The position numbers and the translations under genes were made by a program. The notes beneath the pieces were generated by a model that was not told where the DNA came from, made no database searches, and saw nothing but the letters and a program-made list of their open reading frames with translations. Positions 51,813-64,000 of a stretch of DNA of 64,000 nucleotides are shown here, in pieces. The stretch comes from Thermoproteota archaeon. Its GTDB lineage: Archaea > Thermoproteota > Thermoprotei > Gearchaeales > Gearchaeaceae. Within the stretch, counting starts at the first letter, position 1. The number at the start of each line of letters is the position of its first letter. The stretch covers positions 1-64,000 of the forward strand of contig JAVVGF010000002.1 in NCBI GenBank assembly GCA_032249235.1. Direction: 5' to 3'.

Positions 51813-54800
51813 GTGCAATTCATTTACAAAGCGTTATGCCCCAATGATGGAAATGATATAATTTCGAGTAGACTTGAGAAGGGGCTTGTTTGTGAAAAAT
51901 GTCTTCCTGAATCTTATGCTCATTCTATTCAATCGCATGAAGAACTCATTAAATATTTAGAAGAAAGAAATCTGCTAGAAGGCAAACTTAAAGATTATGA
52001 AGAGTTAGAAGCTAAACTAAGAGAATTTGAAGAATTTTCAAAAGTAGTATATGAAAGCCTAACACCAGCACAAAGGAGCTGGTTCATGAAAGCTTCTAGA
52101 AGTGAAAGTTTTGCAATTACTTATCCTACAGGTTTAGGTAAGACTTCCTTTGGAGTTCTCCTAGCTCTTTACACAATTTATAAGGATAATGGAAAGAAAG
52201 TCTTCTTCATAGTACCGACTAAGTTATTGGTTTCAAGACTTTCAGAAAGACTTCAAGAAATTGCTGAGAAAAAAGATTTGAAACTAAAAATCCTAAAATC
52301 AGGAGAGAAAAAAGAGGATATAATCAACTCATTAAGAAATAGAGAATTTAATATAGCTGTTTTCACACCAAAATTCCTTATTTATAATAAAGACGTATTG
52401 AACAGTAAAGAATATACAGGAATCGCAGATCTGATATTCGTCGATGATGTTGATGCATTACTTAAAAGCTCTAAAGCTATCGATATAGTCCTAAATTTAT
52501 TAGGTTTCGAAGAATCAATTCAGGCTAAGCTTAGAAAGATAATTAAAAGAACCTCTAGAGAGGATACGGAAGCGAAAACTAAAGTGCTAGAGGAGATAGA
52601 AGCATATAAGAAACAAAGAAAGATTGGCCAATTGATTTTCTCAAGCGCAACTACACGGTATACTTCCTCTAGGCTAAGATTATTGAGATACTTATTAAAC
52701 TTTGAACCTGGCTCATCATTAGAAGTTTTCAGAAACATTAAAGAAGTTTATAAGTTCACTAAAAATGAAATTAATGACTGCATTAATATTGTAAAGAAGA
52801 TAGGAGAAGGCGGATTAATTTTCGTTTCAACAGATAAACCCTCTGATTATCTTGAAAAAATAGCTAGTAAACTTGAGGAAGAAGGTATTAAATGTGAAAT
52901 AGTTTCTGGAAAAACAAACGCTAAAAAAATCATAGAAAAATTCGAAAAAGGTGAAGTAAAAGTCTTGATTGGTAATGCAATTTTCTATGGACCTTTGGTT
53001 AGAGGAATAGATATGCCAGCAAAAGTAAAATATGCCTTATTTGTTGGTGTGCCTAAATTTAAATTCTCATTTAGAATATTTGAAAGAAATCCTCTAAGAA
53101 CTCTTTGGCTAGCAAGTTTAGTTGTTAACTTCGTAGAAGATTTCAATACAAGAAGAGCTATACTAGAGACGGCTAATAAATTGAAAAACGAAACACAAAA
53201 ATTCACACCAGAAGCCTTGAGAGCTTTAGCACATATCGAGAAAGTTGAAACTCAAATGCGCATATTTAAGTTGACTAAAGAACTATATGAGTTGCTTAAA
53301 GAAACATTAAAAGATGAAAACCTTGTAAGAAAGCTAGAAGAAAAAAATAGACTTAAAGTCCTTGAAGAAAAAGGAGAAAAATTCTTTTTAATTCCTGACT
53401 CCTTAACTTACATTCAAGCTTCAGGAAGGACGAGTAGGCTATACTATGGCGGAATAACAACAGGCTTATCGATAATACTTGTTGATGATAAAAATATATT
53501 CGAAGGATTGAAATTCCAATTGAATTTAAGAAGTGAACTTTTCAAATTTATAAATTATAAAGAATTTGAAAAAGAAAAAGAAAAAATCCTTGAATTAATA
53601 CGAATAGAAAGAGAAGCTATAGAGAAAAGAGATTTAAAGAAATTGAAAGAGCTCAAGAAGCTTGAACTAAAAACTGCTTTATTTGTTGTAGAATCTCCAA
53701 CAAAGGCAAGAACTATATCTTCATTTTTTGGTAAACCTGTGGTCAGACTTGTTAAAGGGTTGAGAGTTTACGAATGTGTTTCAGATAGATACATCCTTTA
53801 TATTACTGCAACAAGGGGCCATATATTTGATCTTGTTTACACACATGACCCCAATAATGGGTATTATTATGGTGTATTGAAAAAAGATGGTTACATACCT
53901 ATATACAATACAATAAAGAAATGCAACAATTGCGGTGCCCAATTTAATGAATATCTAAAAGAAAAAGGAAAATGCAATTATTGTGGAAGTGATAAAATAG
54001 ATGATCAAATTAAAACTGTAGAAGCTCTTCAAGAATTAGCACAGGAATGTGACTTGGTAATAATAGCTACAGATCCTGATTCTGAAGGAGAAAAAATAGC
54101 GAAAGATGTTTATTTGGCTGTTAAGCCTTTCGCTAAAGAAATTAAAAGAGCTGAAATGCATGAAATAACTTTAAGGGCTTTCTTAGATGCCTTAGATAAT
54201 TTAAGAGATGTAAATGATAAACTTGTTGAAGCTCAAGTACTAAGAAGAATAGGTGATAGATGGGTAGGATTTAGTTTAAGCAACGTAGTTCAACAAGAAT
54301 TTAAACGAAGAACTTTGGGTATAGGAAGAGTACAAGGACCTGTATTACATTGGATAGTAAAGAATTATGAAAAAAGTAAAAAAGAAAAGAAAAAAATTGC
54401 TGTATTTCATACTAAAATAAATGATATAAGATTAAGAATAATATCAAAAAGCATAGATATTAAGAAAAGGAACTTAAAAAATATACTTAAAAATATAAAA
54501 ATAAAAGTATCTAAAATTAAAAAGAAACAAGAACTAATAAGACCTCCAGTTCCCTTCTCTACTACTGAATTATTGACATATGCAATACCTCGAATAAAGG
54601 CTTCATCAGACAAAATCATGAAATTAGCTCAAGATCTATTTGAAGCAGGCTTGATAACATATCATAGAACTGATAGCCATTATATTAGTTATGTTGGATT
54701 CGAAATAGCAAAAAGGTATCTTGAAGAAAAGAACCTTATTGAATTACATAAACAGCGTCAATATGGTGAAAAAGCTACACATGAATGCATTAGACCAACT

Positions 54801-55502
54801 AGACCGTTAGATAGAACAGAATTAGAAAGCGCTATTGCTACAGGACAAATCAGGATACCTATACAATTAACTCCCCAGCATTATCAGCTATATGACTTAA
54901 TATTTAGGGTTTTTATAGCATCACAAATGGAAGAGGCAAAAACAATTACGTATGAAATTTCATTCGAATCATTAAAGGTGCCAATCAATGGTGAAATGAA
55001 AGAAATAAAGCTTAAGCCAATCAAGTTAAATATCAAAGCAGATGAGAATAGCTTCGCAAAGATTTATTCGATACCGACTTATCCTCAATTGGAAAACATC
55101 AAAAAAGGTGATGTATTTGAGGTTGAAGACGTTCAGCTAATTAAGAAGAAAAAAGCACTATTTACAGAAGAGGAAATCATAAGTAAAATGAAAAAAGAAG
55201 GTATAGGGAGGCCTTCTACATACGCTATAATTATTAAAAAATTAATAGAGCATGGTTATGTTTTTAAATCACCTAATAAACAAGCCTTGATTCCTACTAA
55301 AACAGGTATAGAACTAATAAAGAAACTTAATAAAGAATACAAATGGGTTACAGATGTAAAATTAACACGGGAATTTGAAGAAACTATGGATCGTATAGAA
55401 AAAGGAGAACTTAATAAAGTAGAGATAACAAAAAAACTTGATGAATTCTTTGAAAGATTTTATGAATTGAAAAGGCCGACACCAATAGTTATACCTTCTT
55501 AG
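51813..55502 (+). CDS. rgy: Reverse gyrase
   Basis: N-terminal Zn finger, PTGLGKT, DDVD, QASGRTSR, VESPTKA, second Zn finger, DPDSEGE, catalytic ITYHRTDS and GIGRPSTY. Confidence 0.97.
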   Translation: MQFIYKALCPNDGNDIISSRLEKGLVCEKCLPESYAHSIQSHEELIKYLEERNLLEGKLKDYEELEAKLREFEEFSKVVYESLTPAQRSWFMKASRSESFAITYPTGLGKTSFGVLLALYTIYKDNGKKVFFIVPTKLLVSRLSERLQEIAEKKDLKLKILKSGEKKEDIINSLRNREFNIAVFTPKFLIYNKDVLNSKEYTGIADLIFVDDVDALLKSSKAIDIVLNLLGFEESIQAKLRKIIKRTSREDTEAKTKVLEEIEAYKKQRKIGQLIFSSATTRYTSSRLRLLRYLLNFEPGSSLEVFRNIKEVYKFTKNEINDCINIVKKIGEGGLIFVSTDKPSDYLEKIASKLEEEGIKCEIVSGKTNAKKIIEKFEKGEVKVLIGNAIFYGPLVRGIDMPAKVKYALFVGVPKFKFSFRIFERNPLRTLWLASLVVNFVEDFNTRRAILETANKLKNETQKFTPEALRALAHIEKVETQMRIFKLTKELYELLKETLKDENLVRKLEEKNRLKVLEEKGEKFFLIPDSLTYIQASGRTSRLYYGGITTGLSIILVDDKNIFEGLKFQLNLRSELFKFINYKEFEKEKEKILELIRIEREAIEKRDLKKLKELKKLELKTALFVVESPTKARTISSFFGKPVVRLVKGLRVYECVSDRYILYITATRGHIFDLVYTHDPNNGYYYGVLKKDGYIPIYNTIKKCNNCGAQFNEYLKEKGKCNYCGSDKIDDQIKTVEALQELAQECDLVIIATDPDSEGEKIAKDVYLAVKPFAKEIKRAEMHEITLRAFLDALDNLRDVNDKLVEAQVLRRIGDRWVGFSLSNVVQQEFKRRTLGIGRVQGPVLHWIVKNYEKSKKEKKKIAVFHTKINDIRLRIISKSIDIKKRNLKNILKNIKIKVSKIKKKQELIRPPVPFSTTELLTYAIPRIKASSDKIMKLAQDLFEAGLITYHRTDSHYISYVGFEIAKRYLEEKNLIELHKQRQYGEKATHECIRPTRPLDRTELESAIATGQIRIPIQLTPQHYQLYDLIFRVFIASQMEEAKTITYEISFESLKVPINGEMKEIKLKPIKLNIKADENSFAKIYSIPTYPQLENIKKGDVFEVEDVQLIKKKKALFTEEEIISKMKKEGIGRPSTYAIIIKKLIEHGYVFKSPNKQALIPTKTGIELIKKLNKEYKWVTDVKLTREFEETMDRIEKGELNKVEITKKLDEFFERFYELKRPTPIVIPS

Positions 55503-58014: not shown

Positions 58015-58503
58015 ATGCAAAAATTAAAAACCCTCAATAAGAGGGTAAACGTATACGTTGCGGATTCTCTTCTTTGTAAAGGCAAAGGGTTATTTTCGGC
58101 AAAGAGTTTTCAAAAAGAAGAGCTCGTTTATGAATTTGAAGGTGAATATATAAAAGGAGATCTTTCAAACATCTCAAATCCTTATGTATTACAGCTCGAT
58201 GTAGGTTTGTACTTTTTACCTTTTAATGAAGGAAAATATCTTAACCATTCCTGTGAACCGAATTGCAAAATTGTATGGGAAAATAATAGAGTTCTATTAA
58301 TTGCTATAAAAGATATTAAAAAAGATGAAGAACTGTCTTATAATTATAATACTACTGAATTTGACATGGGACCTGATTGGTTTATATGTTCTTGTGGATC
58401 AAATAGTTGTTATAAAGTTATAAAGGGCTTTAAATACTTAAGTAAAGAACAAAAATACAAAATTAAAGATTTAATTTTGCCTTATTTATATAGATTTTTA
58501 TAG
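58015..58503 (+). CDS. SET-domain protein-lysine methyltransferase with post-SET
   Basis: KGKGLFSA, YLNHSCEPN, IKDIKKDEELSYNY and post-SET CSCGSNSC. Confidence 0.9.
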   Translation: MQKLKTLNKRVNVYVADSLLCKGKGLFSAKSFQKEELVYEFEGEYIKGDLSNISNPYVLQLDVGLYFLPFNEGKYLNHSCEPNCKIVWENNRVLLIAIKDIKKDEELSYNYNTTEFDMGPDWFICSCGSNSCYKVIKGFKYLSKEQKYKIKDLILPYLYRFL

Positions 58504-59181: not shown

Positions 59182-59804
59182 GAATTTCAAAACTTATTAA
59201 AAATAAAATTTTTGTTATAAGCTTCTTCATTACTATTATTTCCTATATAGTCTCATTAACAGTGATACAATGGATTTTAAGTCAACATCCACCTTCAAGT
59301 TTTGGCTTATTCAGCAGACCTGATTCGACTAAATTCATACCAAGCTATAATGATATTGTAATCATTTGGATAGCTTCGAAACAAACAGTAGCTGGCCAAT
59401 CTAATTTTGAATGGCTCACAACTATTACTTTAACATCTTTCCTCTTGCTTATTTTACTTGCCTTCATTTCTTCTATCAACATATCTCTTGCAGGTCAATT
59501 AAACATCGCAAAGAAAACCGCAACATGCGGAGCATTCACAAGCATAGCTGGCTTATCCTTAGCTACTTCTGCTATTTCTGCATGCCCAGCTTGCGGAACA
59601 GCTGCTACATTTACAATAGTACAAGCAATAATGGTTGGTTTAACAGGCTCTGCTATAGGAGCTTCAACTTTGTTTGTTAATATAAGTAATGCAATCCTAA
59701 TTTCAGCAATAATAATAAATTTGATACTCACATATGTATTGCTAAGGAAAATAAAGAAAGAAGAAATACTTAATATTAAATGGAAACCTATTATAAAGAA
59801 GTAA
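59178..59804 (+). CDS. Membrane protein with TCG and CPAC cysteine motifs
   Basis: About four TM helices. ATG 59178 overlaps the SCO stop codon. Confidence 0.65.
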   Translation: MRISKLIKNKIFVISFFITIISYIVSLTVIQWILSQHPPSSFGLFSRPDSTKFIPSYNDIVIIWIASKQTVAGQSNFEWLTTITLTSFLLLILLAFISSINISLAGQLNIAKKTATCGAFTSIAGLSLATSAISACPACGTAATFTIVQAIMVGLTGSAIGASTLFVNISNAILISAIIINLILTYVLLRKIKKEEILNIKWKPIIKK

Positions 59805-60307
59805 AAGTTGAAATTAAGATTGGCGATTTATTAGAAGAAAATGCTGAGGCAATAGTGAATCCTGCAAATTCATTAATGATAATGGGTGGAGGTGTAGCTG
59901 GAGCTATAAAAAATAAAGGTGGAAAAGAAATCGAAGAAGAAGCTTTGAAATATGCTCCAGTTCCAATAGGAAAAGCTATAGTAACTGGTGCAGGAAAGTT
60001 AAAAAGTAAATACGTTATTCATTCGCCTACAATGGAAAGACCTGCAATGCTGACTACCAAAGATAAAGTATATAATGCAACTAAAGCAGCATTAGAAGCA
60101 GCACATATAAAAAATATAAAAACCATAGCTTTTCCTGCAATGGGAACTGGAGTAGGAGGGTTATCTTTTAAAGAAGCTTCAGAAGCAATGATTAAAGCGA
60201 TTAAAGATGTGATAGATTCAGGTATAAAATTTGAAAGGATCAGCATAATTCTTAGAGAAAAAGAAGCCTATGACGAATTTAGTAAGGCTATTAAAATTTT
60301 GAAATGA
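59780..60307 (+). CDS. Macro domain protein (ADP-ribose binding/hydrolase, AF1521/YmdB-like)
   Basis: GDL, IVNPANS...GGGVAGAI and FPAMGTGVGG motifs. Confidence 0.92.
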   Translation: METYYKEVKVEIKIGDLLEENAEAIVNPANSLMIMGGGVAGAIKNKGGKEIEEEALKYAPVPIGKAIVTGAGKLKSKYVIHSPTMERPAMLTTKDKVYNATKAALEAAHIKNIKTIAFPAMGTGVGGLSFKEASEAMIKAIKDVIDSGIKFERISIILREKEAYDEFSKAIKILK

Positions 60308-61332
60308 AAGCAGTATTGATTTTTGGAAAGCTTGATGCTAGAGTTGTTGATGTAGATATACCTAAAATATCTGCTGATGAAATAAGGGTTAAATTACTTG
60401 AATGCGGAATTTGCGGGACTGATATAGAAAAATATGAAGGAGATTTTTTAACACCTCCTATTTTAGGGCATGAAACTGTTGGAATAATAGATGAAGTTGG
60501 AGAAGATATTAAAGAATTCAAAAAAGGACAGCGCGTATTTGTTCATCATCATGTACCCTGTAGAGTCTGTTATTATTGCCTTAAAGGGGATTTCACTTTA
60601 TGCGAACAGTTTATAAAATTTAATCTAGATCCTAGCGGCTTGGCAGAATATTTTAGAGTACCTAGCGAAATAGTAAGAAAGAAAGGAGTTTTCGCATTAA
60701 GCGATAAAATAAGCGATGATAGAGCTACATTTATCGAGCCATTGGCTTGCTGTATAAGGGCTCTTAATAAAATCAAGCCAGAAATAGGAGAAAACGTAGC
60801 AATTTTCGGTGGTGGGCCTGCAGGTTTACTTCATTTGTTATTATTAAATAAAGTATATGGAGCAAGAGTTGCAGTCGTTGAAATTAATGAAAAACGCTTA
60901 GAATTTGCTCAAAAAGTTGGTGCTGAAATATTAATTAACCCTTTAAAACATGACACGGTTGAAGAATTAAAAAAATGGTCTTATGGAAGAGGCGTCGATG
61001 TTGCAATCGTAGCTACAGGTAATGTTGAGGCAGTTAAACAAGCTTTGAAATCTTTAAGAAGAGGAGGAAAGCTATGTTTATTTGGAAGTCCTAAAAAAGG
61101 AACTGAAATAATCTTAGATTTAAGCTATGTTTTTATAAACGAGATCAAGATAATACCTTCCTATTCTACTACCGAATTCGAAATTATGCAATCTATATCT
61201 TTATTGGAAAGAAGCATAATCGAACCTGAGATACTAATATCACATAAATTCAAGCTAGAAGAAGCTGTAGAAGCATTGGAAAAAACAAGAAAAGGTGAAA
61301 CGATTAAGGCTGTGATTGTGAATACTAAATAA
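60304..61332 (+). CDS. Zn-dependent medium-chain alcohol/polyol dehydrogenase
   Basis: CGICGTD, GHE, CRVCYYC...C, EPLAC and GGGPAG motifs. Confidence 0.88.
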   Translation: MKAVLIFGKLDARVVDVDIPKISADEIRVKLLECGICGTDIEKYEGDFLTPPILGHETVGIIDEVGEDIKEFKKGQRVFVHHHVPCRVCYYCLKGDFTLCEQFIKFNLDPSGLAEYFRVPSEIVRKKGVFALSDKISDDRATFIEPLACCIRALNKIKPEIGENVAIFGGGPAGLLHLLLLNKVYGARVAVVEINEKRLEFAQKVGAEILINPLKHDTVEELKKWSYGRGVDVAIVATGNVEAVKQALKSLRRGGKLCLFGSPKKGTEIILDLSYVFINEIKIIPSYSTTEFEIMQSISLLERSIIEPEILISHKFKLEEAVEALEKTRKGETIKAVIVNTK

Positions 61333-62611
61333 GTACTGAATCTACGAGCTCTTCAAGATTTTCTTCTGAACTTGTTAAAACTTTATCAAAGCTTACGATA
61401 ACAAAATCTAAGCCTAATTCTTGAGCGTATCGATAGACTTCTAATAATTCTTGTTTTGTAGGATATCTAGCAATTTCTGCATATCTCTTATCATATTTTG
61501 AAGATAATGGATTGCAGAAATTATCAGGATGATATTGATACATAATATTGACTAAAACATCTGGCATGTTTTCGTTTATCCATTTCAAAACAGGTTTTGA
61601 GCAACATTCTACATGGTTTGGCATGATTAAATGTCTTATTACCATATTGTCTCCCCATTCATATACTAATTTATGATTTCTAGAAACAGTTTCGAAATAC
61701 CAAGGAGTTCGTGACAACTTTATAGCGCAATTATTATTACCGAATTTGAAATCAGGTAAGTAAATATCTACAATTTCTCTTAATAATTTCATAAGCTTAT
61801 CGCTCATGAAGAAATTTGAGTTCCACAAGATGGGGGCGTTGAATTCGTTGTTATAATAAGCATTTCGAGGATCCATTTTATAAATGAAGAAATCTGAATA
61901 TGCATTCAGAATATAATTTAGATCCCTTTGGGAAGGTTTCAATTCGCATAGTTCTCTTATTGCTTCAATTATTGTATGAAAATGAATAGTTGGTTCACCT
62001 CCTACAAGATTTATATTATGACATCCTTCCATTCTTAGTTGCCACATCATTAAAGCTAATTGCCTAGGTGTTATAGGAATTCCATTGAATCTATCTGTAC
62101 TAATATCGCCATTTTGACAAAAAGCACAGCGCATATTACAACTCGTGAAGAATATCGTGCCAGAGCCCATTGTGCCACGAAAAACTAATTCCTCTCCTCT
62201 ATGATGAAAATAGCTACTTACTCTGGAAATATCTTCTAATTGACATGTTCCCAGCTTTTCGCCTTTTGTTCTATCTACTCTACAATTCCATCTACAAAAT
62301 TCGCAATGCTTTAAAAGACGCTTGGCTAATTCAACTTTAAGATCAAGAAAGTTAGGACGGGCAACAGGTATATTTTCGATTTTAACTTCTTCATTCTTTA
62401 CCTTTTGAAATAAATCAAGGAATTCTTCAGAAAGTCTATCATGTTCTTTCCATAATTCATCTTCATCAGAATTTCTAAGAACTAAAGAACAAGGAATACG
62501 TCTGCAAATCAAATATTTTGCAGGCTTCTTATTTATAGAAACCTCATAATACCAATTTAATTTCCTTCTTATATTCTCATATGACCAAACCCAAAGTTTT
62601 TCAAAACTCAT
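61325..62611 (-). CDS. Radical SAM protein, PflX-like
   Basis: CEFCRWNCRVDR, HRGEE, SGTIFF.SCNMRCAFCQN, YLPDFKFG and RHLIMPNH motifs. Confidence 0.85.
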   Translation of the reverse strand: MSFEKLWVWSYENIRRKLNWYYEVSINKKPAKYLICRRIPCSLVLRNSDEDELWKEHDRLSEEFLDLFQKVKNEEVKIENIPVARPNFLDLKVELAKRLLKHCEFCRWNCRVDRTKGEKLGTCQLEDISRVSSYFHHRGEELVFRGTMGSGTIFFTSCNMRCAFCQNGDISTDRFNGIPITPRQLALMMWQLRMEGCHNINLVGGEPTIHFHTIIEAIRELCELKPSQRDLNYILNAYSDFFIYKMDPRNAYYNNEFNAPILWNSNFFMSDKLMKLLREIVDIYLPDFKFGNNNCAIKLSRTPWYFETVSRNHKLVYEWGDNMVIRHLIMPNHVECCSKPVLKWINENMPDVLVNIMYQYHPDNFCNPLSSKYDKRYAEIARYPTKQELLEVYRYAQELGLDFVIVSFDKVLTSSEENLEELVDSVLI

Positions 62612-62625
62612 CTAATAATACAATG

Positions 62626-62931
62626 TTACAAAAGACCTTTATTTCTTAATATTTCATCCAATTTTTTAGCATCTCTACAAATAATATGCAAAGTTGTGTT
62701 CTCTTTTATGTCCAAGTCTCTGATTCTTTTACTATCGTCTATTTCCCTGTTTTTATAGATTATTTTGAAAAGTTCTGGATGATCTGAAAGTTTATATTTT
62801 TCTAATATACGCTTTTTTAAATTAAAGATACTTTCGTTAGGATCGATTTCTAAATTTACAATTTTTTTATTAAAGATAGAAAAAGAAATTGTTTCTTTAA
62901 AAATAAAAGTCTCGTTTATTCTTATTTTCAC
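62626..62931 (-). CDS. Ubiquitin-like (eukaryote-type beta-grasp) protein without C-terminal GG
   Basis: KIVNLEIDPNESIFNLKKRILEK...KIIYKNREIDDSKRIRDLDIKENTTLHIICR aligns by eye with ubiquitin 11-72. The GTG start overlaps the htpX stop. Confidence 0.75.
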   Translation of the reverse strand: MKIRINETFIFKETISFSIFNKKIVNLEIDPNESIFNLKKRILEKYKLSDHPELFKIIYKNREIDDSKRIRDLDIKENTTLHIICRDAKKLDEILRNKGLL

Positions 62932-63806
62932 ATTATATAAATGCCCATTTCCTTAGCTATTTGTTTTAGTCTTTCTATTCTTTTCTTAGTTGAAGGATGT
63001 GTTGAGAACCATTCAATAACATCCTCAGCAGTGATGCCCTTTCTAAAAGGATTTGCTATCCATAGAGATGCCGTTGTTTGTGGAGCATCCAACCTTGCTC
63101 CAGACATTATGTAGTTTTCTATTTTAGTTAGAGCTGAAATTAAATCTTGAGGTTTGCCAGTCAATTTTGCAGAAGTATAATCAGCAAGATATTCTCTAGC
63201 TCTAGATATTGCTAATTGAATCAAAGATGCTGTAAACGGTGCAAGAATATAAGTTGCTAGCGCTAGCGCTACTTCACCTCCATTCCTACCTCTTGCTAAT
63301 ACTACTAAGAACAAGAAATATGCCAACCAGGTGATTGCTGAAGCAATAGCAGCAGCAATCGTAGCAACTAGCACGTCTCTATTAACAACATGTCCTATTT
63401 CATGACCGAATACAGCTTCCAATTCGTCATCATTCATTATTGTTAACAAACCCGTAGTAGCTGCTACAACAGCATGACCGGGACCTCTTCCTGTAGCAAA
63501 AGCATTGGGTTGAGGTGCATTAACGATAGCCACTTTTGGCTTCTTTATTCCTGCTTTCGCAGCAACTCTTTCAACGATTCTATGCAATCTAGGAGCTTCA
63601 GCTTCGCTTACTATTCTTGCTCCAGCACTGTAAAGTACAAGCTTATCTGATATAAAGTAGAAAATAATATTGAGTATTAAGGACATTATGAGGAAAGCAA
63701 AAGCTACTGCAATACCTCCAATCAGGTAACCTATACCTATTAATATCGCTCCTAATAATGCCATTAAAAGAACCGTTTTAACATAAATCTTCAATGCATA
63801 TGCCAT
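62928..63806 (-). CDS. htpX: Membrane zinc metalloprotease HtpX (M48)
   Basis: PNAFATG, HEIGH, SRAREYLAD and FSTHP motifs. Confidence 0.95.
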   Translation of the reverse strand: MAYALKIYVKTVLLMALLGAILIGIGYLIGGIAVAFAFLIMSLILNIIFYFISDKLVLYSAGARIVSEAEAPRLHRIVERVAAKAGIKKPKVAIVNAPQPNAFATGRGPGHAVVAATTGLLTIMNDDELEAVFGHEIGHVVNRDVLVATIAAAIASAITWLAYFLFLVVLARGRNGGEVALALATYILAPFTASLIQLAISRAREYLADYTSAKLTGKPQDLISALTKIENYIMSGARLDAPQTTASLWIANPFRKGITAEDVIEWFSTHPSTKKRIERLKQIAKEMGIYIM

Positions 63807-63880
63807 TTCGATTATTAATTTAAAGAAGCTTATTTTTAAACTTTTAGTCAGACTTAAATTTATTGAAGAAGTAATAAGTG

Positions 63881-64000
63881 ATGGTGGCTGTTCCTAAATT
63901 GATGCCTGATGAAATCATTTCAAGAGCAGTATATCCTATGATAAGAGCAATGATTGCTAAGCGCCTTGTTGAGAGATATCATTTTAATCAAAAAGAAGTC
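63881..64000 (+). CDS. HTH transcriptional regulator (COG2522-like; truncated by window end)
   Basis: MVAVPKLMPDEIISRAVYPMIRAMIAKRLVERYHFNQKEV fits the P.E....P.IRA.IA..L.....Q.E pattern that precedes an HTH. Confidence 0.65.
   Translation, partial: MVAVPKLMPDEIISRAVYPMIRAMIAKRLVERYHFNQKEV

Follow-up and report, generated by a model that had tools for sequence, protein, structure and literature searches.

The genes described here lie at the right-hand end of a 64,000-nt stretch of DNA (positions 1 to 64,000 of contig JAVVGF010000002.1, assembly GCA_032249235.1, from a Thermoproteota archaeon), which at its full length is called the window. Three consecutive genes on the minus strand encode an HtpX-type zinc metalloprotease, a small ubiquitin-like protein (Ubl) and a radical SAM protein, and a helix-turn-helix protein is encoded divergently from htpX (Table 1). 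The source assembly (G000) comprises 1.43 Mb in 18 contigs, is 91% complete and has a GC content of 31.7%; the DNA runs that contain the stretch are labelled as hot-springs metagenomes. Together with eight other genomes, G000 makes up the archaeal family called f1 below. A previous reading of the letters alone (the sequence-only reading) had proposed that the small gene encodes a eukaryote-type ubiquitin-fold protein without a di-glycine, in one operon with htpX and the radical SAM gene. The layout given there, with a GTG start overlapping the htpX stop and 14 nt between the Ubl and radical SAM genes, was confirmed from the coordinates of the open reading frames (ORFs).

Table 1. Features of the htpX-Ubl locus in the window, and the E1-containing gene row on another contig of the same genome.
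Feature	Position	Strand	Description or basis
htpX, M48 zinc metalloprotease	62928..63806	-	292 aa; HEIGH at residues 135-139; hydrophobic N-terminal and central segments
GTGA, Ubl GTG start over htpX TGA stop	62928..62931	-	4-nt overlap; ORF coordinates
Ubl, ubiquitin-family protein	62626..62931	-	101 aa; GTG start; without GG; ORF listing; PF00240
ETFIF codons 7-11, onset of the expanded beta1-beta2 loop (residues 7-23)	62899..62913	-	nine-sequence alignment
Invariant Cys85 codon, at the ubiquitin L71 position	62677..62679	-	family alignment and HMMER alignment
C-terminal helix, residues 88-97, with invariant L95 and R96	62641..62670	-	DSSP on the model; alignment
Spacer, Ubl stop to radical SAM start	62612..62625	-	14 nt; coordinates; spanned by an RNA-library contig
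Radical SAM protein	61325..62611	-	428 aa; CNMRCAFC (CX3CX2C); PF04055 E 1.2e-11; Fer4_12 E 2e-6
Helix-turn-helix protein, divergent from htpX	63878..64000 in the window (63878-64324 in contig C2)	+	148 aa
L003: PALP enzyme, ThiS/Urm1-like protein, ThiF E1, then GHMP kinase	C3:110797-114501 (G000)		ThiS/Urm1-like 88 aa; E1 352 aa

Membership of the Ubl in the ubiquitin family was assessed using profiles, sequence alignment and a structural model. Pfam PF00240 matched residues 17-86 (profile positions 3-70 of 72) with an E-value of 5.4e-12 and 45.7 bits against a gathering threshold of 25.4, and the same match was returned by a whole-genome scan of G000. Second best among the eight Pfam matches at E<=1 was Rad60-SLD (E 6.7e-7); none of the eight was ThiS, MoaD or Urm1 (PF02597, PF09138). 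Eukaryotic mono-ubiquitin from the PDB matched the Ubl at about E 8e-8 using phmmer. In the HMMER alignment, Ubl residues 21-86 are paired with ubiquitin residues 9-72 at 18 identities and with one 2-residue gap. R62 stands at the position of K48, I58 at that of I44 and LHIICR opposite LHLVLR, and the equivalents of ubiquitin K27, I30, I44, D52, L67, H68 and R72 are kept. The alignment that the sequence-only reading had made by eye was thereby reproduced in its identity count, its gap, the replacement of K48 by Arg and the I44 equivalent.

The structural model was built using AlphaFold2 on the nine-sequence family alignment (A1), and reached a mean predicted local distance difference test score (pLDDT) of 89.3 and a predicted template modelling score (pTM) of 0.77. 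Ubiquitin topped the Foldseek list against the PDB, with template modelling (TM) scores by target of 0.83-0.89 and root-mean-square deviations (rmsd) of 1.7-2.1 Å. A wide VIA-align search over 48,161 representative chains gave the same picture: nearly all of the top 50 rows were ubiquitin, UBL (ubiquitin-like) or SUMO chains (Z 9.7-11.4), the best match had a Z of 11.4 and an rmsd of 1.8 Å over 77 aligned residues, and no ThiS or MoaD chain was among these 50 rows. A look-up in the ESM Atlas agrees with a ubiquitin-type fold. On the choice between ubiquitin and ThiS/MoaD, which had been left to such searches, PF00240, Foldseek and VIA-align all favour ubiquitin, and no non-ubiquitin beta-grasp family fitted better. 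The Ubl is a true eukaryote-type ubiquitin-family beta-grasp protein and is not of the ThiS/MoaD type.

The model also places the features that set the protein apart. Strand beta1 comprises residues 2-6 (KIRIN), beta2 residues 24-28, and the last strand residues 80-85, ending in Cys85. The loop between beta1 and beta2 is about 12 residues longer than that of ubiquitin; residues 7-23 have no regular secondary structure, and pLDDT averages 71 at residues 11-20. Since beta1 lies at residues 2-6, the sequence alignment to ubiquitin begins inside this expanded loop. The C-terminal helix assigned by DSSP has a pLDDT of about 91.

Orthologues of the Ubl are 42-88% identical and share 21 invariant residues in the nine-sequence alignment, family-specific motifs included. 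ETFIF (E7-T8-F9-I10-F11) is invariant in all nine sequences, and the I44-equivalent position stays hydrophobic, as I or V, across the family. The translation holds a single glycine, G99, and the statement in the sequence-only reading that GG occurs nowhere is correct. G99 is variable, being N in the sequences of genus g3, and the copy in G004 ends in KIGKI. Measured against the closest DNA relative, metagenome locus L107 (88% protein identity for the Ubl), dN/dS (the ratio of nonsynonymous to synonymous substitution rates) was 0.20 for the Ubl gene, compared with 0.03 and 0.04 for htpX and the radical SAM gene, respectively. The Ubl gene is real and under purifying selection.

Expression was examined using Logan contigs of one metatranscriptome run (X10), which carry no strand, leave a single transcript unproven and may include DNA carry-over. 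A 916-nt contig on 62888-63773 takes in htpX almost entirely, together with 44 nt of the Ubl gene, a 261-nt contig on 62487-62747 bridges the junction between the Ubl and radical SAM genes, and every bin over the Ubl gene has a depth of 4.3-6.2. RNA-library contigs over both junctions thus support expression, which had been named as a point to check. Bins 61292-61787 and 63896-64000 were uncovered in X10, with DNA run X5 even there, and were not used as evidence.

The 916-nt contig (depth 33) reads along the minus strand in permuted order, from 63069 to 62888 and then from 63773 to 63040. Its joint, 62888/63773, has no shared letters and links a site in the Ubl ORF, 44 nt from the start, to a site in htpX, 33 nt from the 5' end of that gene; it was not seen in three DNA runs. 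A circular RNA, template switching or a cycle in the assembly might explain it.

The gene is narrowly distributed. Counting G000, it is present in 8 of 41 genomes, which are eight of the nine members of f1 and span three genera, and was found in none of 32 genomes that belong to the same order or class but to nine other families; a profile search restricted to the order (12 genomes) agreed with this. G006 is the sole f1 genome without a Ubl found; it is 67% complete, and the one HtpX match found in it is weak (33% identity, E 3.2e-20). A phylum-wide scan using PF00240 was positive in 69 of 401 genomes, and in the window's class outside f1 it was positive in none of 56 genomes of nine other families. 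The positives outside f1 carry a Caldiarchaeum-type ubiquitin (MKIK.VPAVGGG...TRTVGG, with the tail present or absent), and most of their loci have a second Ubl match about 1.7 kb away in a frame of roughly 400 aa. Caldiarchaeum-type ubiquitins score 11.5-20.2 bits against the window Ubl and 29-44 bits against the eukaryotic ubiquitin repeat. Against the same repeat the f1 members score 5-36 bits, the window copy reaching 33 and the other members, by one count, 5-22. By these scores, the f1 proteins are a branch of their own within the ubiquitin family, and one that evolves fast. A recent transfer from eukaryotes was considered and rejected: the 33 bits of the window copy are no sign of it, since Caldiarchaeum-type ubiquitins reach 29-44 bits and the other f1 members fewer.

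Among 5.8 billion protein clusters, 15 proteins match the family profile, all of 101-105 aa or fragments, and one of them bears the NCBI name 'ubiquitin-like protein'. An exhaustive profile search gave 1058 matches at E<=0.001, mostly polyubiquitins; only P0001, P0008 and the fragments P0052 and P0098 fitted the full profile, and no distant single-domain relatives were added. A fusion of HtpX and Ubl was not found among longer homologues, where a single polyubiquitin-like protein of 512 aa came up; this is weak evidence. None of 429 pattern matches in viral contigs encodes a Ubl relative, and a viral origin was rejected. A match at metagenome locus L110, with 36% identity across 64 residues, was discarded as due to chance: the sequence there is AT-rich and of low complexity, has stops in every frame read and lacks htpX. 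One orthologue, P0003 (locus L102), is recorded at NCBI as 'ubiquitin-like protein [Geobacterales bacterium]' on a contig titled 'MAG: Crenarchaeota archaeon'; the bacterial label looks like a taxonomy error.

The upstream gene encodes an M48 protease. The protein matches Peptidase_M48 (PF01435) at E 2.8e-42, and the HEXXH columns H135, E136 and H139 are invariant in its alignment. With the NCBIfam HtpX models it scores 229-275 bits (top 274.7), short of the equivalog cut-offs, which run from 341 to 422. The transmembrane segments were recognised by visual inspection of the sequence, and the only sequence relative of the protein in the PDB is a fragment, 3cqb, of 107 residues.

Conservation of an htpX-Ubl-pflX neighbourhood had been suggested, and its htpX-Ubl part held throughout. 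htpX lies directly upstream of the Ubl gene in all eight f1 loci and in three metagenome loci (L107-L109), and in 8/8 of the f1 loci read, from three genera, the first codon of the Ubl gene shares bases with the stop codon of htpX (GTGA, TTGA or TGATG). The two genes are translationally coupled in every f1 locus. A six-frame scan of 30 htpX loci of the class with a Ubl hidden Markov model matched only the eight f1 loci (E <= 6e-38; next E 0.3). Two features set f1 HtpX apart from its closest Ubl-less orthologues: four residues inserted after NPFR (in the window copy K-G-I-T, residues about 255-258), and a loop between the central hydrophobic segments that is some 8 residues shorter (residues about 165-175). 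Both are candidates for sites co-adapted with the Ubl.

The divergent 148-aa protein resembles HTH_3, Cro and ParB-HTH weakly, with E-values of 2e-4 to 5e-4 that do not reach the cut-offs. A homologous ORF of 147-149 aa is divergent to htpX in seven of the eight f1 loci; it is not listed at the eighth (L010, G007), where the sequence starts close upstream of htpX. In G012, G015 and G018, which have HtpX without a Ubl, a 229-232 aa ORF on the same strand lies upstream of htpX instead. The helix-turn-helix protein is possibly a (stress) regulator of the htpX-Ubl unit.

The pflX part of the neighbourhood did not hold in the same way. The radical SAM protein, presumably PflX-like (COG1313), although no tool confirmed that label, reached no NCBIfam equivalog cut-off and had no PDB relative at E<=0.001. 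Its gene follows the Ubl gene in six of the eight f1 genomes (two of the six cut by contig ends) and in two of the three metagenome loci. It was not found at E<=1e-20 in G001, a genome 95% complete that keeps htpX-Ubl, and in G004 it lies on another contig than the Ubl gene. It is present in 39 of 41 relatives, including all 32 genomes outside f1, none of which has the Ubl, and at none of its loci outside f1 does htpX or Ubl stand beside it. Homologues outside f1 match as two blocks (residues about 5-220 and 256-408), and the f1 protein therefore carries an insert of about 35 residues; several relatives have a stop codon between the two blocks. Since the gene occurs class-wide without the Ubl and was not found in one f1 genome and lies elsewhere in another, we regard it as a chance neighbour, that is, a class-wide gene adjoining htpX-Ubl in part of f1 and probably not part of a functional module.

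Genes for conjugation were sought across the genome, as the sequence-only reading had proposed. E2 (PF00179) and JAB/MPN (PF01398) were not found in any of three f1 genomes (G000, G001 and G005, 91-95% complete), and in both positive controls (G113 and G050) the two were found within about 1 kb of the ubiquitin gene. Prok-JAB (PF14464) was not found in G000 either, a genome whose 91% completeness leaves absence unproven. The sole PF00899 (ThiF-type E1) match of G000 sits on another contig, C3, beside a ThiS-type gene. The 88-aa product of that neighbour matches ThiS at E 4.9e-11 and Urm1 at E 3.3e-5 in Pfam, and the PALP-ThiS-ThiF row is probably a sulfur-carrier (SAMP/Urm1-type) system with a beta-grasp partner of its own. 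A second PF00240 match in G000 (C2:209940-210050, 22 bits) is spurious, lying inside a formyltransferase (PF00551, E 5e-53). A C-terminal LRxKG was considered as a counterpart of LRLRGG and rejected, G99 being variable and the segment helical. A conjugated modifier has a C-terminal GG, exposed or before a cleavable tail, on a flexible C-terminus, and cognate E1, E2 and JAB genes, usually adjacent. The Ubl has neither the GG nor the flexible tail, E2 and JAB genes were not found, and the sole E1 gene adjoins a ThiS-type one; a non-conjugated UBL has the ubiquitin fold without a conjugatable C-terminus, which is what the Ubl has. It is a ubiquitin-family protein that is not conjugatable by any known route.

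Whether the Ubl binds HtpX was addressed by complex prediction using an HtpX alignment (A2, seven rows) and the Ubl alignment A1, in three runs with three controls. The scores were 0.47, 0.46 and 0.44 (median 0.46, rated 'weak support') against 0.00 for each control, with contact agreement of at least 80% and a partner pLDDT of 81. Of 157 solved complexes, 116 attain the mark for a pass, as do 2 of 215 mismatched pairs; only 18 of the 157 pass with a score no higher than 0.60, and so do both passing mismatches. The PDB holds only a 107-residue fragment of HtpX, so the pass is unlikely to stem from a remembered complex. Of the sequence-only proposal that the protein is a non-conjugated UBL adaptor, the first half stands, GG being absent and E2 and JAB not found; for binding to HtpX, the support is weak and computational (0.46 against 0.00).

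Our preferred model, to which we assign a probability of about 0.5, is that the Ubl is a non-covalent accessory subunit or partner of HtpX on its cytoplasmic side, where it may regulate the protease or recruit substrates or partners. The review PMC9263693 places the catalytic domain of HtpX on that side. According to the model, a ubiquitin would have turned into a stand-alone, non-conjugated UBL that kept the core and exchanged the LRGG tail for a helix packed on the domain, while its beta1-beta2 loop, which corresponds to the L8 loop of ubiquitin, would have grown by about 12 residues bearing the ETFIF motif. Co-produced with the membrane zinc protease through translational coupling, the Ubl would bind the cytoplasmic face of HtpX non-covalently, with the ETFIF loop and the C-terminal helix as putative contact elements, and once bound would regulate the protease or bring substrates or partners to it.

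Several observations weigh against this model. A score of 0.46 lies in a band that is more often wrong than right unless the guess is already likely, and no contacts were given with it. Gene adjacency and coupling show co-expression, not contact, and the RNA contigs have the limits stated above. The Ubl is about six times less constrained than HtpX, judging by dN/dS (0.20 against 0.03). Outside f1, close orthologues of HtpX (53-58% identity) are confined to G012, G015 and G018 and have no Ubl behind them; the Ubl is therefore not needed for HtpX activity as such. There is also a more specific form of the model, built on the link to Cdc48 or PAN-proteasome suggested in the sequence-only reading. 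In it HtpX would permanently carry the Ubl as a non-covalent ubiquitin handle, attached through the ETFIF loop and the C-terminal helix, and the ubiquitin surface so presented would recruit Cdc48 or the PAN-proteasome to extract and degrade membrane proteins. We consider this form improbable; in its favour, the M41 domain of FtsH was not found in G000, and the genome has two Cdc48 homologues (C5:25653 and C1:311766).

Those two homologues also bear on the possibility that the Ubl is a free cytoplasmic UBL with another partner (Cdc48, PAN, a proteasome docking site or some other receptor), its position behind htpX reflecting shared stress regulation. Its fold is nearest to ubiquitin and to shuttle-type UBLs (parkin, Rad23 and Dsk2, Z 10-11.4), and the I44 equivalent is kept as I or V, as would suit such a role. 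However, a stop/start overlap in 8/8 loci from three genera exceeds what co-regulation needs, the HtpX complex prediction passed its controls, if weakly, and no receptor was identified, in an analysis that made no search for UBA or UIM; we hold this explanation to be rather unlikely. More doubtful still is a role for the downstream enzyme, in which the radical SAM protein would act on the Ubl, for example by modifying Cys85, or pair with it. The invariance of that cysteine, the 14-nt distance, the succession of the two genes in six of eight genomes and two of three metagenome loci, and the RNA-library contig across their junction would all fit. The distribution of the enzyme runs the other way, as it was not found in G001 despite htpX-Ubl there, is on a different contig in G004, and is present in 32/32 relatives that lack the Ubl, without htpX or Ubl at those loci. 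The suggestion in the sequence-only reading that the enzyme modifies the Ubl or belongs to one module with it is weakened by the same counts.

That the Ubl is conjugated after all, a protease (perhaps HtpX) trimming its C-terminus and the ThiF-type E1 activating the new end, is very hard to reconcile with the data. Its end, ILRNKGLL, loosely resembles LRLRGG, G000 does encode one ThiF E1, and archaeal ubiquitins of the same phylum bear tails after GG that get cleaved (as seen in their sequences and, for processing by Rpn11, in PMC6043591). Against this, GG is absent, G99 is replaced in g3 and in G004, L95 and R96 lie in a confidently modelled helix rather than in a flexible tail, no E2, JAB or Prok-JAB was found, and the E1 adjoins its own ThiS-type partner. 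We give least credence of all to the view that the gene is decaying and without function, left over from an ancestral ubiquitin system of archaea. Constraint on it is lower than on the neighbouring genes, and the ubiquitin similarity of family members varies widely (5 to 36 bits), but the frame is intact in 8/8 genomes from three genera with 21 invariant residues, a dN/dS of 0.20 indicates purifying selection, the start/stop coupling is kept, the fold is confident and RNA-library contigs lie over the gene.

Other genes of the window lie further from these subjects. At 51813-55502 (+) lies the gene for a 1229-aa reverse gyrase, a marker of hyperthermophiles, whose domains are the reverse-gyrase zinc finger, a helicase, Toprim and a topoisomerase. 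Two stand-alone domain proteins are encoded within 5 kb of the Ubl gene, one with a SET domain (162 aa, E 9e-17, 58015-58503, +) and one with a Macro domain (175 aa, E 2e-32, 59780-60307, +). The Macro gene and a zinc alcohol dehydrogenase gene are syntenic with the htpX-Ubl locus in relatives.

Compared with eukaryotic ubiquitin, the Ubl is alike in its PF00240 match, in the 18 identities over ubiquitin 9-72 and in a superposition at about 1.8 Å. It differs in lacking GG and the flexible LRGG tail, in place of which it has the C-terminal helix, in its expanded loop with ETFIF, in the Arg that replaces K48 in the window copy, and in that E2 and a deubiquitinase were not found in the genome that bears it. 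With the ThiS, MoaD, Urm1 and SAMP proteins of archaea it has the beta-grasp fold in common, but it has no GG, does not stand beside an E1 gene and has no Pfam match to them. The Caldiarchaeum-type ubiquitin operons (ubiquitin, E1, E2, a small RING protein and Rpn11; PMC3082918, PMC5654768 and PMC6043591) come from the same phylum and likewise encode PF00240 proteins. Their ubiquitins end in TRTVGG with or without a short tail and have E2 and JAB genes within about 1 kb, unlike the f1 Ubl.

Archaeal PF00240 proteins have so far been discussed as parts of full E1/E2/RING/Rpn11 operons and as clues to the origin of the eukaryotic ubiquitin system. The f1 Ubl represents a second fate of the ubiquitin fold in archaea, in which conjugation was lost, family-specific elements were gained and the gene was welded to htpX. 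The family is small (15 clusters among 5.8 billion, from one archaeal family), which makes it a well-defined test case and not a general principle. No title or abstract describing a ubiquitin-like gene linked to htpX or M48 was found in the literature covered, which did not extend to subscription journals, and the review PMC9263693 gives the function and partners of archaeal HtpX as unknown. If the proposed binding is true, archaeal HtpX gains its first candidate accessory factor.

In its working logic the Ubl may be closest to the non-conjugated UBLs of eukaryotes. Hub1/UBL5 and the UBL domains of parkin, Rad23, Dsk2 and BAG1 act by non-covalent binding, and the model resembles several of them in structure (VIA-align Z 11.4 for the parkin Ubl, 10.2 each for the UBLs of Rad23 and Dsk2, and 9.9 for Hub1). 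These known proteins are eukaryotic and mostly domains of larger proteins, whereas the archaeal protein stands alone and its non-covalent binding is something we infer; to our knowledge, no eukaryotic non-conjugated UBL is a partner of an M48 protease. If the binding is true, non-covalent signalling by ubiquitin domains is no eukaryotic invention. A looser functional analogy can be drawn to FtsH and to the UBL-bearing eukaryotic machines of endoplasmic-reticulum-associated degradation (ERAD), which would share with the f1 pair a membrane metalloprotease for quality control and possibly a ubiquitin-fold handle. HtpX is ATP-independent, however, and contact of the Ubl with an AAA+ ATPase is hypothetical. 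Should the handle form of the model prove true, an ATP-driven machine would be assembled from separate parts, and the htpX-Ubl pair would be a prokaryotic forerunner or analogue of ERAD logic that works without ubiquitylation enzymes, in an archaeon without FtsH.

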